Shown: positions 166-6,019, counted from the stretch's first letter. The stretch is DNA of 60,101 bases from Candidatus Onthousia faecigallinarum (GCA_018716225.1 DVKE01000042.1:1-60101), one strand, 5' to 3'. A program made the numbers and translations. Notes: generated by a model from the letters alone, not told the origin.

Positions 166-175
166 AGTTCGAACA
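166..175. repeat. Distal att-like core AGTTCGAACA of the left element
   Basis: Exact 10-mer repeated at 5926-5935 and, as its reverse complement, at 57354-57363. It has a palindromic TTCGAA centre. Confidence 0.5.
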
Positions 176-294
176 ACTATCAATCTGGTGCCGTTGAGAA
201 AGTTATCTACAACTTTTGCCAAAGGTAATTGATGTATGAATCAATCACTAAAAATAGTTTAGCAAATAAAAGAAAAAGTAACAATAATATAATA

Positions 295-816
295 CTAATT
301 TTGTATATAATTAGGCTTTAAAATCTTAGACTGTCCTTTTTCTAAAATTTGACTTTTTAAAAGTATTCCCAATTCTTCCCAAGAATCAATATCATTGGAA
401 TCAAATAAATTATTAATTTGAGATTTTAAAAGAGATATTGCCATATCAATTTCAGAAGAATAATCTAATGCTGATGCTGAATAGCTTTTTCTTGGAATAC
501 CAAATTCTAAAAAACAGTCTCGCAAATCAATAGTATTTGATAAAAAAGCTTCATTTGAATGTCTAACAATATATTTTTTTTCGTCTGTATCAGGACAGTA
601 ATAAACATATTCGTACCGATAATCGCTTCTATCATCGGGCATTGCTAAAGATTCATCTATTTGAAAAAGCAGTATTGGTATTTCTGATGTTTTTTCTTGA
701 TTATACTGTTCTTCTAATATTTTTAATTCGTTTCCTTTCTCTATTATTTGTAATCTTTTCTGTTTAATTTCTTTTTCTAATTCTTGTATTTTAATTATTT
801 TTTCATTTCTATCCAC
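295..816 (-). CDS. Hypothetical protein with N-terminal coiled-coil (IME cargo)
   Basis: 173-aa ORF with a GTG start preceded by GGGAGG. The N-terminus is K/E/Q-rich and heptad-like. No recognisable motif. Confidence 0.55.
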   Translation of the reverse strand: MDRNEKIIKIQELEKEIKQKRLQIIEKGNELKILEEQYNQEKTSEIPILLFQIDESLAMPDDRSDYRYEYVYYCPDTDEKKYIVRHSNEAFLSNTIDLRDCFLEFGIPRKSYSASALDYSSEIDMAISLLKSQINNLFDSNDIDSWEELGILLKSQILEKGQSKILKPNYIQN

Positions 817-874
817 AAACTAAACCTCCCTTAATTTATATACTTTAATACAATAGAATTTATATATAATTGAT

Positions 875-1333
875 TTAACTCTTTTTCTTTACTAACATTG
901 GCCCTTGAGATTGTTGTTTTTTCTTTAAGTCACTATCCAAACCAAACATTACATTAAACAAATTAGTCATTTTATCAACCATTTCTGTATCAGTATTTGA
1001 TATTATTTCCTGTGCAATCTCCTCATCACATGAAATGATGGATCTAGTTTCTCCAACACCATGTATTTGTGTTAATAAGCCAAATATTTGTTCTGTATTT
1101 ATTGCAGCGCCTAAATCTAAATATGAATTTTTTGGATTTATATAATCTTTTTTAGGACATATATCCTGAAATAGTTCTTCAAAGTCAGGTAAAGAATAAA
1201 ATTCATATAATTTAGTTTCTAATTCATGATGTTTTATAATTGGAGATAAACCTTTCTGAAAATTTATTGCACAGTACAATCTAATAAAGTCTGTTTCAGA
1301 AAATCTAGGATATTTAATAGTTTCTTTAATCAT
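875..1333 (-). CDS. Hypothetical protein (IME cargo)
   Basis: ORF-track 875-1348. The ATG at 1333 (MIKETIKYPRF) sits 8 nt after GGAGG, so the upstream ATG probably lies inside the RBS. No recognisable motif. Confidence 0.55.
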   Translation of the reverse strand: MIKETIKYPRFSETDFIRLYCAINFQKGLSPIIKHHELETKLYEFYSLPDFEELFQDICPKKDYINPKNSYLDLGAAINTEQIFGLLTQIHGVGETRSIISCDEEIAQEIISNTDTEMVDKMTNLFNVMFGLDSDLKKKQQSQGPMLVKKKS

Positions 1334-1396
1334 AATATTAACCTCCACTTGTGTATATATTATATCATGCCTTTAAATAAATTTAAAGTTTAATCA

Positions 1397-2779
1397 TCAT
1401 ATTTCTAAATCAAAGTCTTCATGATCTTTATTTTTATCATATTCTTTGCTCCAATTATAATCTGCTTTCAAATCTTTAATTGTTTTATCGCTAAATATTC
1501 CATGTTCGTATAAGTCTTTTGAAAATCCCCAATAATCTTCACGTTCTTTGTCTTTGCCTAATATTTTATGTTTGATAAAGTTGATTAATCTATCAAATAA
1601 ATCTTTAAAGTAATCTACTAGTTCTTCAAGATGTTTATTATCTTTTTTTAACTCTTTAATCTCTTTATTTTTGTTTTCAATATTTTTTGATAAAGTATCT
1701 ACTTTAAGAGATAATGCCTCATTATTTTCAGTTAGTATTTTAATTTTTTCTCTATTTTCCTCTAGTTCAGTATCAACATTATTTAGGGTAACTGATAGTT
1801 TTTCAGTTCGTTTAAAATCAGAGTTTGTTTTATCAACTTTATCAATATATTCTAATATTTTATTTTTATCATCTTCGGAAATAGTATAGGTGTTTTTTAC
1901 TATTGGTGCCTTTTTTAGATTATTAACTGTGTCTTTAATATCAGCGGTAATTTTATCAAGTTCACTAGATTTTTTACTGGCTATTTCTAATGCTTTTTTA
2001 TCTTTTTCCATTTGGTCTTTCATGGCTTGATAATTTCCCATATCTTTGACATTTATATCTTTGTTTCTACCTTTTTCTTTCTTTTTCAAAATGTCATTTA
2101 AGCAATATTCTTTATTAAAACTAGCAATACATAGTGTTCTCATTTTATCTTGTAATTTGCGAAGACTATCTCTTGTGAAAACATCTCCTTTACCAACTTG
2201 TTTTTTCATACCAGTTTTATTTTTATATTTTATTGGTACACCAACAATATGAAGATGTGGACTAGTTTCGTCATAGTGAATAATCGCACTGGCTATTTTA
2301 AAGTTAGGTAATTGTTCCTCTAAATCACTCACTTGTTCTTTAAAAACATTAGTCATTTTATGCTTGAATTTATCATCTTTCGCATCCCAATATTTTTTAT
2401 CTCCAAGTTCAATGATAATTTCACAAGCGAGGTCATTTTTGGAGTTATCACTTATCTTTTTGAAATAATCTGTAATCTTTCTATCATCTCTTGTTTGCCT
2501 AGAATTATATTCATCTACTGCCTCTTTAAATTCTTCTTCATAAAGTTTTTTGACATCATCATAGAGAGAAGAAGTACCTCTTATTATTTCAATTAGTTCT
2601 GTATTATTATCATATTTACGGTAATTATGTTTATCAACTCGTGATAAACCTCTCGCATTTTGAATTGCATTGTTTGATAGAGAAGTAGTGCCAGAAGCAT
2701 TACTTTTTGCCATATTTTTTGATGATGGCTTTCTGTTTTTATCACTACCTAGATGTAGTGAATAAGATAATTCGCTCAT
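1397..2779 (-). CDS. mob: MobV-family (Pre/Mob) relaxase
   Basis: 460 aa. The N-terminal domain carries the MobV signature HxDE..PHxH (IHYDETSPHLHIVGVPI). The C-terminal half is a long coiled coil, as in Pre/Mob proteins. Confidence 0.8.
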   Translation of the reverse strand: MSELSYSLHLGSDKNRKPSSKNMAKSNASGTTSLSNNAIQNARGLSRVDKHNYRKYDNNTELIEIIRGTSSLYDDVKKLYEEEFKEAVDEYNSRQTRDDRKITDYFKKISDNSKNDLACEIIIELGDKKYWDAKDDKFKHKMTNVFKEQVSDLEEQLPNFKIASAIIHYDETSPHLHIVGVPIKYKNKTGMKKQVGKGDVFTRDSLRKLQDKMRTLCIASFNKEYCLNDILKKKEKGRNKDINVKDMGNYQAMKDQMEKDKKALEIASKKSSELDKITADIKDTVNNLKKAPIVKNTYTISEDDKNKILEYIDKVDKTNSDFKRTEKLSVTLNNVDTELEENREKIKILTENNEALSLKVDTLSKNIENKNKEIKELKKDNKHLEELVDYFKDLFDRLINFIKHKILGKDKEREDYWGFSKDLYEHGIFSDKTIKDLKADYNWSKEYDKNKDHEDFDLEI

Positions 2780-5323: not shown

Positions 5324-5530
5324 TAGCACCCATCCTTTCTAAAAAAAGAGATGAAAGTCCTAGAAATATCTACTACCTTTATCTCTTTAACTTTGCTATT
5401 AATAAATTGTGTACTTCCAAATCAATAACCCCCATTAAAAAGATTTGGCAGGTAAATAACCCCTTGTTTTGCCTAATATAATAAAGTTTTTAAGAGAAAA
5501 AGTCAATATCTGTCGTTTAAATAATAATGA

Positions 5531-5806
5531 TTAAGCCATATTCTTAATATAATCTTCTAATTCTACAAGTTTAATCTTTCTATTTAGATTACCTATATAA
5601 ATATCAGTAGAATAGTTAAAAGCTAGAAAAGTAGTATTATTTACAACGATTTTATGAGGTTCAATGTAGTTTAAGTTTGTATTGTTAATTCTTTTAATAC
5701 TTCCATTAGTAATGATAGGAGTAACGTGGCAGAACTCACAAATAAACTCAATACGTTGTTTCAAACTTTTTTCCATTTCTAACTCTTGAGTAGTAAACTT
5801 TATCAT
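5531..5806 (-). CDS. Small conserved element protein (unknown; candidate recombination directionality or regulatory factor)
   Basis: 91 aa from the ATG at 5806, whose RBS context matches the right copy. It is clearly homologous to 57452-57724 (IEFICEFCHVTPIITNGSIKRINNTNLNYIEPH vs LEIICDFCNTSPTFINGSIRKIDKTNLSYIEPH). Confidence 0.6.
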   Translation of the reverse strand: MIKFTTQELEMEKSLKQRIEFICEFCHVTPIITNGSIKRINNTNLNYIEPHKIVVNNTTFLAFNYSTDIYIGNLNRKIKLVELEDYIKNMA

Positions 5807-5925
5807 AATTAACACCATCCTTTCTTTTAGGATGATTTCTATGTACTTCCAAGCCCTACGGGAGTTCGGAACACAAAAAAAATCAATCCAAACGGATTGA
5901 TTATATGTTAAGTTCAAACTGTAAA

Positions 5926-5935
5926 AGTTCGAACA
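5926..5935. repeat. tRNA-proximal att-like core AGTTCGAACA of the left element
   Basis: Exact copy of 166-175, located 10 nt from the 3' end of tRNA-Gly. Confidence 0.5.
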
Positions 5936-5945
5936 GAAACGTCAC

Positions 5946-6019
5946 TGGAGCGGATGAGGAGAATCGAACTCCCGTAGTTAGCTTGGAAGGCTAAGGTTCT
6001 ACCATTAAACTACATCCGC
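5946..6019 (-). tRNA. tRNA-Gly (anticodon UCC)
   Basis: The reverse complement folds as GCGGATG acceptor, anticodon stem TTAGC/GCTAA with loop CTTCCAA, T-arm GGGAG TTCGATT CTCCT, and an encoded CCA. Confidence 0.9.

Follow-up and report, generated by a model that had tools for sequence, protein, structure and literature searches.

The window, i.e., the whole stretch of 60,101 nucleotides from Candidatus Onthousia faecigallinarum analyzed here, harbours two tRNA genes that are each followed by an element encoding a large serine recombinase (LSR). The following features were assigned to the two sites (P and P' denote the element-borne arms of the attachment sites):

1–185, − strand: DNA outside the left element, with GATTGATAGT, a 10-mer at 166–175, a terminator-like hairpin with T run at 154–171 (terminator scan) and GGTCGAAAAGTG
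186–217, − strand: P arm at the far end of the left element, AAAAGTTGTAGATAACTTTCTCAACGGCACCA, motif conserved in 44 far ends
295–1348, − strand: variable cargo, a 157-aa ORF (875–1348) and a 173-aa ORF (295–816) (ORF calls)
1397–2779, − strand: MobV-family relaxase, 460 aa, with HYDETSPHLH (Pfam Mob_Pre)
2800–3057, − strand: 85-aa ORF upstream of the relaxase gene and conserved with it (85 % identical homologues in loci L194 and L217)
3055–3263, − strand: conserved non-coding block with nested inverted repeats (alignment of five elements)
3389–5329, − strand: large serine recombinase, 646 aa, intact (Pfam, PHROG and PDB matches)
5531–5818, − strand: small conserved ORF, ~91–95 aa, with a homologue in the right element (57443–57724)
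5881–5902, − strand: element-borne terminator-like hairpin AATCAATCCGTTTGGATTGATT with T run, 44 nt past the tRNA (terminator scan)
5923–5945, − strand: P' arm of the left element, GTGACGTTTC-TGTTCGAACT-TTT, conserved behind 18 tRNA species
5946–6019, − strand: host tRNA-Gly(TCC), intact (ARAGORN; Rfam tRNA, 69.4 bits)
57257–57343, + strand: host tRNA-Leu(CAA), following scpA and scpB (ARAGORN)
57344–57371, + strand: P' arm of the right element, TTGGGAAATC-TGTTCGAACT-ATTCGAAC, directly behind the tRNA-Leu CCA
57443–57724, + strand: small conserved ORF of the right element, homologous to 5531–5818
57963–59908, + strand: large serine recombinase of the right element, frameshifted (ORFs 57963–59051 and 59330–59908)
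59910–60101, + strand: right-element counterpart of the non-coding block 3055–3263, candidate oriT (by alignment)

The left element has the make-up of an integrative mobilizable element (IME) with an LSR, a MobV relaxase and a candidate origin of transfer (oriT), its 5,760 bp accommodating the recombinase and relaxase genes, the conserved non-coding block and four small ORFs. No T4SS gene is located within it; T4SS genes are found elsewhere in the window, among whose products are a VirB4-like ATPase, a TrbL-like protein and a coupling protein. The relaxase matches Pfam Mob_Pre (59.4 bits, cut-off 25.5), its HxDE...PHxH motif being read directly from the sequence, and reaches 41.3 bits with the NCBIfam MobV equivalog, which is under the cut-off of 100. 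The 85-aa ORF upstream belongs to no family in Pfam, PHROG or NCBIfam and may encode a relaxase accessory protein. In five elements, with recombinases no more than 75–79 % identical to the left one, the non-coding block 3055–3263 between the recombinase and mob genes is invariant over long stretches; it has no match in Rfam and is a candidate oriT. The small ORF 5531–5818 probably starts at M34 or M38 of a mechanically called 128-aa ORF. Its homologues (41–86 % identity) adjoin P' in relatives, recombinase-less units included, and its product, without match in Pfam, PHROG and NCBIfam, is a candidate directionality factor or regulator. The cargo has no relative at ≥80 % identity among the loci compared, and a homologue of its 157-aa ORF (68 % identical) is the only gene of an 889-bp mini-unit in locus L180.

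At its tRNA-proximal end, the left element adjoins the encoded CCA (5946–5948) of tRNA-Gly(TCC), which forms the B half of the left attL and whose host flank is shared with locus L043; the junction is placed at or within the last 5 nt of the gene (C72-U73-CCA). The P' arm begins with the first base past CCA. The hairpin at 5881–5902, a counterpart of which is kept in relatives, probably substitutes for the displaced tRNA terminator. The P arm at the far end resembles a tRNA 3' end, with the T-loop-like GTTGTAGA, an acceptor-like stretch and A73-CCA, and the element stops at this CCA (186–188); an identical P arm is found in locus L239 behind a relaxase of 95 % identity. Metagenome unitigs branch, with read-depth jumps, at both ends, i.e., at 5942–5952 near the P' arm and not at the 10-mer, and at 186, where several paths diverge and the depth jumps between 171 and 189. 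The adjoining DNA (1–185) belongs to a tandem array, either as a remnant or as the beginning of its next unit: the same module follows CCA in nine other loci (L081–L084, L237–L241) and heads recombinase-less units of 837 and 1,502 bp.

The right element extends past the window end. Its tRNA-Leu(CAA) likewise encodes its own CCA and represents the B half of attL, and the scpB-tRNA-Leu synteny is held in six related genera, whether the element is present or absent. The recombinase gene is interrupted by a single frameshift near 59027–59035, beyond which reading resumes in the next frame, reflecting either a pseudogene or an assembly error; the frameshift does not figure in the first-pass annotation. 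Both window recombinases are LSRs. Their identity amounts to 73 % within the first 361 residues, in line with an earlier estimate by eye of about three quarters in the catalytic domain, and to 46 % in the C-terminal ~180. The left protein matches the Pfam domains Resolvase (117.4 bits, cut-off 23.3; residues 12–158) and Recombinase (72.9 bits, cut-off 21.1), and the catalytic serine motif RVSTEDQ was read directly. Zn_ribbon_recom scored 22.3 bits, slightly below its cut-off of 25.3, with CPKC...CTDC again read directly. Further matches were obtained with the PHROG 95 integrase (2.4e-107, residues 5–474) and the catalytic domain of TP901-1 integrase (PDB; 1.5e-19). Species-representative genomes contain 556 relatives of the protein.

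The 10-mer TGTTCGAACT occurs exactly three times in the window, at 166–175 (−), 5926–5935 (−) and 57354–57363 (+), as compared to 0.07 copies expected from shuffled sequences (none of 100 shuffles reached three matches). Each copy starts 10 nt after a CCA, and the pattern CCA-N10-TGTTCGAACT matches all three sites and no other (0.00 expected). Coordinates and sequences given by the first-pass annotation for both tRNA sites, including the 10-nt offset and the spacers GTGACGTTTC (tRNA-Gly) and TTGGGAAATC (tRNA-Leu), proved correct; that the far-end copy at 166–175 is also preceded by CCA at exactly this distance had been overlooked. In the right element, a terminator-like hairpin (57355–57371) has the 10-mer as its stem, and the spacer agrees with the family's TTGACGAATC at 7 of 10 positions; in metagenome run X4, this spacer was found behind an end reading ...CTCCA.

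About 190 (187) related junctions were collected from genomes of gut Bacilli and Clostridia, with recombinases down to ~42 % identity sharing the geometry. The common position of the two diverged window elements relative to their tRNA genes, as noted before, is thus a family trait. At these junctions, the block NTGACGWWTC-TGTTCGAACT stands directly behind CCA; it is found after 18 tRNA anticodon species in the two bacterial classes and is element DNA. A tRNA ends at the junction in 128 of the 175 junctions with enough upstream sequence (18 anticodons, 11 amino acids). Behind these unrelated tRNAs, spacer positions +1 to +10, which had not been selected for, show 86 % consensus identity (1.49 bits). 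Elements 99.9–100 % identical are found in different species and behind different tRNAs: those behind tRNA-Cys (L013) and tRNA-Gly(TCC) (L054) are 100.00 % identical over 2,600 nt past CCA vs 49 % over the 75 nt before it, identity beginning directly past CTCCA, and the element behind Gly-GCC in L010 is 99.96 % identical to those behind Gly-TCC in L012 and similar loci. The spacer is accordingly not host DNA, as had been assumed, and because the block behind CCA is element DNA, the left element corresponds to window positions 186–5945. The extent predicted earlier was equivalent in length but shifted by 20 bp, its supposed far end at 166–175 belonging to the neighbouring unit.

The far ends bear a conserved mimic of a tRNA 3' end, AAGTTGTAGATAAC-N13-CCA, and diverge straight after CCA. 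Across 44 of them, AAGTTGTAGATA(A/T)C-N13-CCA is conserved at 81–95 % identity, information dropping to ~0.3 bits at +1, and the far ends of L009 and L054 are identical through CCA and divergent beyond. Most far ends have no 10-mer past this CCA. In a recombinase-independent test, a genome search with GACGWWTCTGTTCGAACT gave 120 matches, 114 of which are preceded by CCA at a distance of exactly 2 nt; among the six exceptions, five were chance matches in unrelated taxa. The sole core common to 38 attL/attR pairs (elements of 5.0–10 kb) is (G)C(T/A)CCA. In the sister genera represented by L086 and L087, scpB-tRNA-Leu sites without an element have ordinary trailers that lack the motif. Neither an excision product nor a circular form was encountered: none of the contigs is circular, the public runs consist of short unitigs, and the predicted empty site had no match in metagenome contigs; a clean attB/attL/attR triple from one species was not obtained.

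Reconstruction of 37 attP sites revealed a dyad with its peak between −5 and −4 (46.5 % complementarity), other centres mostly reaching 0.2–0.3 (maximum 0.37). From the dyad centre to the outer motif, the half-sites measure 24 nt (P), 23 nt (P') and 20 nt (tRNA), i.e., a dyad attP of ~50 bp is combined with a shorter host half-site having its outer motif nearer the centre. These lengths fit the rule published for LSRs on the basis of LI integrase, according to which the zinc-ribbon motif lies 5 bp nearer the centre in attB than in attP (PMC3783163). N73 agrees between attL and attR in 37 of 38 pairs, which together with the dyad symmetry points to a putative crossover at C72-N73. In the left window element, however, this base is T in attL but A in attR, L073 deviates at −5, and all junctions have no more than CC and CA in common.

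Taken together, these small mobilizable elements form a widespread family, and the TGTTCGAACT they carry is best read not as a crossover site but as a recognition motif, more precisely as the outer motif of the half-site on the element side, reminiscent of the tRNA T-loop. Overall, we assign a probability of roughly 0.85 to the reading that both loci are IMEs whose LSR inserts at the CCA end of tRNA genes, with the 10-mer internal to attP and crossover in C72-N73-CCA.

The first-pass annotation had instead taken TGTTCGAACT as crossover core, with the 10-nt spacer as host DNA and the left element (166/176–5935) flanked by 10-bp direct repeats. Judged from the window alone, the two ends of the left element indeed share no repeat longer than the 10-mer; moreover, the first 9 nt past CCA are similar on both sides of mini-units in L084 and L081 (TTGGGAAAT, RATTGATAG), and spacers and sequences past the 10-mer combine in several ways. 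For the family as a whole, however, this reading is contradicted by the conservation of the spacer behind 18 unrelated tRNA species of two classes, by its inclusion in identical elements at different tRNAs and by the lack of the 10-mer past the P-arm CCA of most far ends. Even when 2 mismatches were allowed, the attP (GATAGT-core-TTTACA) and attB (CGTTTC-core-AGTAAT) predicted from it had no match in related loci totalling 2.05 Mb, in which P-arm-CCA-P' junctions are present nine times, and the suggested comparison with element-free relatives yielded empty tRNA-Leu sites without the motif. In serine integrases, a palindromic core centre confers no polarity; the centre of TGTTCGAACT (CG) is itself palindromic and would therefore provide none for an LSR. 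We consider a crossover inside the 10-mer very improbable. An only slightly less improbable view regards the 10-mer as a mere terminator or processing hairpin behind tRNA genes without any role in recombination, a case the annotation had itself named as counting against its model and which is borne out in part, as two of the three window copies reside in T-run-tailed, terminator-like hairpins (154–171 and 57355–57371). Sub-lineages pair the 10-mer with different downstream partners (GTTTGAAC, TTCGAAC, GAACAG, TAGTTCG), which suggests selection for a hairpin. Yet the motif moves with the element and is missing at empty sites, it lies at precisely the same distance from CCA in 187 junctions while a terminator stem needs no such spacing, it mirrors the P-arm motif about the dyad centre, and the left element possesses a canonical terminator of its own at 5881–5902. 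A dual role of the 10-mer as recognition motif and hairpin stem is possible.

In a classical tRNA island, crossover inside the tRNA, for instance in the T-loop as in the ssrA islands of Dehalococcoides, would let the element bring a new tRNA 3' end, the far end representing the displaced host end. The far end does look like a tRNA 3' end with N73-CCA, and its two variable positions (CAC[TC][TC]GCTCCA) match real tRNA-Gly variants. This reading is nevertheless contradicted, and we hold it to be the least credible: up to −6, the tRNA 3' strand at attL is specific to the host, with CCCCTCCA (Cys) and CCGCTCCA (Gly) preceding the same element, and the far-end stretch is constant whatever tRNA is occupied, being not Cys-, Tyr- or Thr-like in L070, L064 and L075, respectively. 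Furthermore, its T-loop-like motif is 4 nt more distant from CCA than that of a real tRNA.

Under the preferred reading, i.e., LSR-mediated insertion at the tRNA CCA end, the circular element, ordered P' arm, small ORF, LSR, candidate oriT, small ORF, MobV relaxase, variable cargo and P arm, would be inserted at the extreme 3' end of a CCA-encoding tRNA gene, which would remain intact and receive a new terminator from the element. The proposed attP is an imperfect palindrome of ~50 bp. Its P half would imitate a tRNA 3' end, GTTGTAGA standing for the T-loop GTTCGAWT, followed by an acceptor-like strand and N73-CCA; the P' half would consist of NTGACGWWTC-TGTTCGAACT with the 10-mer as outer motif. 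By analogy with the canonical LSR model, the 10-mer (half-site positions 15–23) may be the motif of the zinc-ribbon domain, mirroring GTTGTAGAT (P positions 16–24) and echoing the tRNA T-loop, which itself lies 4 bp nearer the centre, as for an attB half-site. If crossover occurs within C72-N73-C-C-A, the sequence directly behind the tRNA is always element DNA and the 10-nt offset a fixed attP-internal distance. Behind tRNAs, elements accumulate in tandem arrays, joined there by mini-units that lack a recombinase but have the same arms at their borders; the window's third 10-mer is part of the next such unit. Canonical LSRs pair attP solely with attB; the abundant P-arm-CCA-P' junctions within arrays (9 in 2.05 Mb of related loci) are therefore not accounted for by this model. 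Excision is predicted as well, and transfer between cells would presumably involve relaxase and oriT with a resident type IV secretion system, e.g., that of the window itself.

Phage-type large serine integrases (A118/LI, Bxb1, phiC31, TP901-1) share the resolvase, recombinase and zinc-ribbon set with a long C-terminal part and the imperfect-palindrome attP, the outer motif at ~16–24 of attP half-sites being shifted towards the centre by 4 bp in the host half-site here and by 5 bp in LI (PMC3783163). The window recombinase differs in being at most 34 % identical to any recombinase in the phage and plasmid collections and in its additional C-terminal ~170 aa without family match, and its carrier is a mobilizable element of 5–10 kb, not a phage. 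The ssrA islands of Dehalococcoides encode two recombinases, DsiA and the serine recombinase DsiB, and are inserted in the T-loop of the single tmRNA gene, of which 20 bp are duplicated (PMC3146451). These islands likewise combine a serine recombinase at a tRNA-like 3' end with an integration module beside attL, tandem arrays and recombinase-less islands thought to be mobilized in cis (PMC3146451). Assignment to this type was rejected on account of the N73-CCA junction with ≤6 bp shared and the single recombinase; the use of many tRNA species and the MobV relaxase are further differences. Tyrosine-integrase IMEs (NBU1, IME_Sag2603_tRNAlys; PMC5704250) are also small mobilizable islands at tRNA 3' ends, keep the tRNA functional and occur in tandem with other elements, but differ in enzyme and mechanism and contain the tRNA 3' end a second time, as a long direct repeat; a tyrosine-integrase tRNA island was rejected, since no ORF contains a tyrosine recombinase domain (Pfam) and the far-end stretch is unlike the occupied tRNA.

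Clostridial IMEs of the Tn4451/Tn4453 type are small and mobilizable elements of Firmicutes with a large serine recombinase (TnpX) and a mobilization protein; TnpX, with a core of 2 bp, shows little target specificity, whereas the target of the window family is highly specific. TnpX relatives typically carry DUF4368 (PMC10083194). Membership in this TnpX/TndX clade was rejected, as no DUF4368 was found in the left recombinase (Pfam, E ≤ 0.01) and the target is a defined site of ~40 bp. Among NCBIfam models, the recombinase is most similar to CcrB of SCCmec. SCCmec and the window family both use the 3' ends of conserved housekeeping genes as insertion sites; in contrast, SCCmec targets rlmH instead of tRNA genes, and the window element has a single recombinase and a relaxase. 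SCCmec forms composite arrays with repeated att sites, like the window family. With 141.8 bits against a cut-off of 900 for CcrB (CcrA, 95.9 vs 700; CcrC, 92 vs 900), the left protein is not a Ccr recombinase. By analogy only, the arrays resemble integron cassettes, short recombinase-less units bounded by composite sites beside a fixed attachment point; integrons differ in employing a tyrosine recombinase on folded single-stranded attC sites, neither of which occurs in the window family.

No serine-recombinase element family with this tRNA-CCA target, nor its recombinase-less mini-units, was found in the published literature. The elements described here probably insert by means of an LSR exactly at the 3' CCA end of many tRNAs, a target so far credited to tyrosine integrases. 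As the host half-site is made up of parts of tRNA genes, i.e., T-arm, acceptor strand and CCA, a genome offers many suitable loci. Serine-recombinase IMEs have been reviewed as integrating within protein-coding genes (PMC5704250), a picture from which the window family departs.

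The decamer TGTTCGAACT occurs exactly three times in the window (166-175 and 5926-5935, minus strand; 57354-57363, plus strand), as against 0.07 occurrences expected from shuffled sequence, which confirms that its recurrence lies far beyond chance. The tRNA genes reported in the first-pass annotation, tRNA-Gly(TCC) (5946-6019, minus strand) and tRNA-Leu(CAA) (57257-57343, plus strand), are in place, both encode CCA, and both adjoining genes indeed encode large serine recombinases (LSRs), which are 73 % identical across residues 1-361 and 46 % identical in the C-terminal portion. 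Missed at that stage was that the far-end copy of the decamer, too, has a CCA exactly 10 nt before it; CCA-N10-TGTTCGAACT matches these three sites and none else in the window. A perfect sigma-70-type promoter (TTGACA, 16 nt, TATAAT) is located just upstream of tRNA-Gly at 6058-6085 (minus strand).

When 185,579 species were scanned, each represented by a single genome, 556 stretches encoding relatives of the LSR emerged. The best 80 of these 556 all belong to uncultured Bacilli, 'Tenericutes' or Clostridia of the gut, with chicken, rabbit, ruminants, mouse and human as the sampled hosts, and the closest relatives, among them a Candidatus Pelethosoma merdigallinarum genome, are 98 % identical. 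Recombinases from phage and plasmid collections are at most 34 % identical to the left LSR, and a gene-position index contained no exact match to it.

Initially, the decamer had been read as the crossover core itself (10 bp), placed 10 nt from the tRNA, an assignment against which both the conservation of the spacer and the existence of identical copies behind different tRNAs speak. Among related loci from other genomes (L-numbers), the decamer is present wherever the sequence ahead of the LSR start reaches about 650 nt or more, and the eight loci without it are shorter on that side; in the former, about 590 nt upstream of the LSR, ...CCA is followed by N(T/C)(G/A)ACG(W)(W)TC and then TGTTCGAACT. 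The spacer formed no part of the pattern by which junctions were selected and displays 86 % consensus identity (1.49 bits). What precedes the CCA is variable: a complete tRNA ends at the junction in 128 of the 175 junctions with enough upstream sequence, representing 18 anticodons (Gly, Leu, Cys, Tyr, Thr, Phe, Met, Gln, Asn, Arg, Ala). When genomes were searched with GACGWWTCTGTTCGAACT, i.e., without a recombinase anchor, 114 of 120 matches had a CCA exactly 2 nt upstream; five of the remaining 6 are chance matches in unrelated taxa. Copies behind tRNA-Cys (L013) and tRNA-Gly(TCC) (L054) share 100.00 % identity over 2,600 nt after the CCA and 49 % over the 75 nt before it, only CTCCA being common to the two junctions, and 99.96 %-identical copies reside behind tRNA-Gly(GCC) and tRNA-Gly(TCC) of different species. 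Since the identity of copies behind different tRNAs starts after the CCA, the element begins at or a few bases inside the CCA. Spacer and decamer are element DNA, i.e., part of the arm directly following the host CCA (P'). In metagenome unitigs, paths branch at 5942-5952 on the tRNA side. The spacer of the right element, TTGGGAAATC, was also considered as host DNA (L084 has it behind tRNA-Leu), and this was ruled out by its occurrence after the non-tRNA far-end arms of L082, L238 and L240 and after a ...CTCCA end as well as by its match to the family spacer at 7/10 positions.

At the other boundary, 44 far ends have A(A/G)GTTGTAGATA(A/T)C in common, with 13 nt between it and a CCA; the stretch most often reads TACGACACTCGC(T/A)CCA. 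Conservation of this tRNA 3'-end-like arm (P) amounts to 81-95 % up to the CCA, and the next base is at background (0.3 bits); accordingly, L009 and L054 are identical to the far-end CCA and unrelated beyond. In the window, the P arm comprises 186-217 with its CCA at 186-188; 186 is the exact branch point of several unitig paths, and from 171 to 189 depth increases several-fold. The junction-to-junction distance in the left element is 5,760 bp, so that the length originally proposed was right but its position 20 bp off. The attP (GATAGT-TGTTCGAACT-TTTACA) and attB (CGTTTC-TGTTCGAACT-AGTAAT) predicted from the decamer core have no match in 2.05 Mb of related loci with two mismatches allowed; the same 2.05 Mb contain nine P arm-CCA-P' junctions. 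The classical model of a displaced tRNA end was considered for the far-end tRNA-like stretch and rejected. The contig of L030 ends exactly at the P-arm CCA, as expected if assemblies break where varied neighbours follow one repeat.

The attP sites of 37 elements were reconstructed by joining each P arm to its own P' arm, with positions numbered from where CCA ends. These sites show a sharp maximum of dyad symmetry between -5 and -4 with 46.5 % complementarity, most other centres scoring 0.2-0.3 and none above 0.37. The arms read AAAAGTT...ACGACAC and GTGACGT...AACTTTT, with TCGCTCCA between them. Relative to the dyad centre, GTTGTAGAT occupies positions 16-24 in P and the decamer positions 15-23 in P', while the T-loop GTTCGAWTC of the tRNA forms positions 12-20 of the host half-site. 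Published serine-integrase sites carry the zinc-ribbon-domain motif at about 16-24 in attP and 5 bp nearer the centre in attB (PMC3783163), an architecture with which the att sites of this family agree. By analogy with these sites, the decamer is interpreted as the probable outer recognition motif of the P' half-site, with GTTGTAGA as its proposed counterpart in P; the palindromic look of the decamer would then arise because the T-loop TTCGAA is imitated.

Across 38 pairs of attL (tRNA plus P') and attR (P plus trailer), the only bases common to both ends are (G)C(T/A)CCA; L073 deviates at -5, and in the strict sense CC and CA alone recur at all junctions. The tRNA discriminator base (N73) is the same in tRNA and P arm in 37 of the 38 pairs (T with Gly, Cys and Thr; A with Leu and Tyr), the sole exception being the left element of the window (attL T, attR A). 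The cut would fall within C72-N73-CCA, and the dyad symmetry points to C72-N73 as the crossover dinucleotide. Should N73 belong to the crossover, this base would determine which tRNA genes are usable. Spacers and sequences past the decamer come in several combinations, reflecting either point divergence or recombination at the palindrome.

In two of its three window copies the decamer forms the stem of a terminator-like hairpin, the downstream pairing partner of which differs among sub-lineages. It may therefore also aid in terminating or processing the tRNA transcript after displacement of the native terminator. This is treated as an added rather than a rival function, because it leaves the fixed position and the symmetry partner of the decamer unaccounted for.

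With recombination at the CCA, the empty site would read ...CATCCGCTCCA directly followed by GATTGATAGTTGTTCGAACTAG, and the circle junction ...AAGTTGTAGATAACTTTCTCAACGGCACCA joined to GTGACGTTTCTGTTCGAACTTTTACAG. At the scpB-tRNA-Leu locus, L086 and L087 have an empty site with an ordinary trailer that lacks the decamer, and L085 and L091 are occupied. The predicted empty site of the left element, CTCCA-GATTGATAGT-TGTTCGAAC, had no match in the metagenome scan, and a metagenome scan for the flanking module revealed no empty tRNA-Gly and five more CCA-linked contexts. Over 1-7000, Logan contigs of four chicken-gut runs yielded 31-mer unitig joints alone and no excision or circle junction; among the related loci, no complete contig has the terminal overlap of an assembled circle.

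All genes of the left element are on the minus strand and read away from the tRNA.

Features of the left element and of the conjugation module
5881-5902, minus strand: terminator-like hairpin (terminator scan)
5531-5818, minus strand: small ORF adjoining P' (no family matched)
3389-5329, minus strand: LSR, 646 aa (domain search)
3055-3263, minus strand: non-coding block, candidate oriT (conserved above the proteins across distant relatives)
Left element, minus strand: 85-aa ORF preceding the MobV relaxase gene (no family matched)
1397-2779, minus strand: MobV relaxase (Mob_Pre, 59.4 bits)
Left element, minus strand: two cargo ORFs (no family matched)
50140-52302: coupling protein, conjugation module
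45174-46964: VirB4-like ATPase, conjugation module
42130-44316: TrbL-like protein, conjugation module

This make-up is that of an integrative mobilizable element (IME), with recombinase and relaxase being ordinary members of the LSR and MobV families; the four small ORFs have no match in Pfam, PHROG or NCBIfam. Recombinase residues ~475-646 (window 3389-3900, C-terminal ~170 aa) lie outside every matching profile, show the lowest conservation between the two copies in the window (46 %), and could form an extra DNA-binding or regulatory domain. A non-coding block of ~200 nt is present in both elements (3055-3263 and 59910-60101) and contains nested inverted repeats (CTAGGGA..TCCCTAG and TTTTGATG..CGTCAAAA). 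It keeps long invariant stretches even where recombinases are 75-79 % identical, has no match in Rfam, and may serve the MobV relaxase as oriT. The right-hand recombinase gene carries a single frameshift in an A-rich run near 59027-59035 with the next frame open to 59908, indicating either a decaying copy or an assembly error. The island at 27564-53665, encoding surface proteins, a sortase-like protein, Tad/Flp-pilus-like proteins (RcpC/CpaB-like, T2SSE ATPase) and the conjugation module, is a possible helper for mobilizing both elements; among the ORFs scanned, neither a relaxase nor an integrase belonging to the island was identified.

Beyond the left element, window positions 1-185 comprise GATTGATAGT, TGTTCGAACT, AGTAATAGTTCG, a T run and ...GGTCGAAAAGTG. 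The same module also follows a CCA in L081-L084 and L237-L241; in L084 it stands after tRNA-Leu and heads a 1,502-bp one-ORF unit (55-1557) ending in a P arm, and in L081 it heads an 837-bp unit (133-970). Such recombinase-less units are common: 48 junctions with 3 kb of sequence downstream gave at least 12 of them, which span 0.6-1.5 kb from P' arm to P arm and usually contain one ORF (further loci: L120, L125, L161, L177, L180, L193, L197, L207, L208, L221, L226, L233). These mini-units resemble cis-mobilizable elements or gene cassettes. Some junctions have P arms of other families upstream (e.g., ATTTTTCGAATATAAGT..., AGAGTTTCGAATAGCC...), and in L057 a second element (1326-7487) is inserted between tRNA-Gly(GCC) and the first. 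Its recombinase is more distant (about 70 % nucleotide identity over 940 nt), and the element has a P' arm (GATTGATAGG-AAACTCGG...) and a P arm (GGTTGTCCGACTTC...GGCTCCA) of its own. The succession of tRNA-Gly(GCC) and GATTGATAGG... in L057 had been considered as an empty site, which was rejected since BLAST shows the distant recombinase gene right behind. Occupation of L057 by another element family implies that many far-end 'host' flanks are P' arms of other units, and the CCA site is common to several recombinase lineages. Units bounded by P' and P together with stacked elements in related loci thus reveal tandem arrays behind tRNA genes in these bacteria, the next unit, or what is left of one, being truncated by the left edge of the window.

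The sole ORF (203-634 nt past the junction, oriented copy) of the 889-bp mini-unit in L180 is 68 % identical to the 157-aa cargo ORF of the window (875-1348); hence, the same cargo gene travels in a full element and alone. In L144, a P' arm and small conserved ORF are followed by a putative DNA methyltransferase and, as judged by eye, a putative restriction partner (466-2447 nt past the junction, oriented copy) and then by host genes, with recombinase and P arm absent; this looks like a decayed element that left its defence cargo behind tRNA-Tyr. At 100-150 of L084, three tandem copies of GGTCGAA(A)AG(C/T)G separate the P'-type module from an AlbA_2-like ORF, and one copy is present in the window (about 125-136); the repeats may constitute an operator or other binding site.

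According to a review of IMEs, tRNA 3' ends are targets of tyrosine integrases, and serine-recombinase IMEs insert within (protein-coding) genes (PMC5704250); the present family, in contrast, combines a serine recombinase with a tRNA 3'-end target. A large survey of LSR target sites nowhere mentions tRNA (PMC10083194). The nearest precedent are the ssrA islands of Dehalococcoides (PMC3146451), which likewise involve a serine recombinase, a tRNA-like target gene and tandem as well as recombinase-less islands, but differ in that they insert into the T-loop of a single gene, are associated with a 20-bp repeat and encode two recombinases. A published description of the present family was not found in the literature searched, which excluded most subscription journals. 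The family is distinct from known systems in target and site design rather than in its proteins.

Behind the repeated decamer stands a common family of mobilizable elements that carry a serine recombinase, insert at the CCA end of many different tRNA genes and form arrays with mini-units; as such, it is more interesting than the shared core proposed in the first-pass annotation. Mechanistically, the LSR would read the 3' end of tRNA genes, which is conserved universally (T-loop GTTCRA, acceptor strand and N73-CCA), as host attachment half-site, the tRNA-end mimic being carried as the element's own half-site. With crossover at C72-N73, a single attP base (the 'discriminator') would switch the element between tRNA gene classes. 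Each insertion would remake a docking point, and the recombinase would move recombinase-less cassettes in trans, giving rise to integron-like arrays behind tRNAs of gut Firmicutes. Canonical LSRs pair attP with attB only. A large, horizontally mobile LSR clade uniting all three traits, i.e., the tRNA 3' end as half-site, the C72-N73 discriminator switch and trans-moved cassette arrays, is a tentative reading, to which we assign a probability of roughly 40 %.

Serine integrases are valued genome-engineering tools. The CCA end would offer a natural landing pad in every bacterium encoding CCA in its tRNA genes and could permit DNA to be inserted, without disruption and without an installed landing pad, in gut Firmicutes that are hard to engineer. 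Exchangeable cargo would also have a new reservoir in the recombinase-less mini-units, one recombinase-less unit containing putative restriction-modification genes. The family contradicts the working rule that tRNA 3' ends belong to tyrosine integrases and suggests a simple sequence logic by which one serine integrase could occupy a dozen or more loci in a genome and leave them unharmed, the proposed basis being that the conserved T-arm and CCA end are recognised and that the element brings its own terminator.
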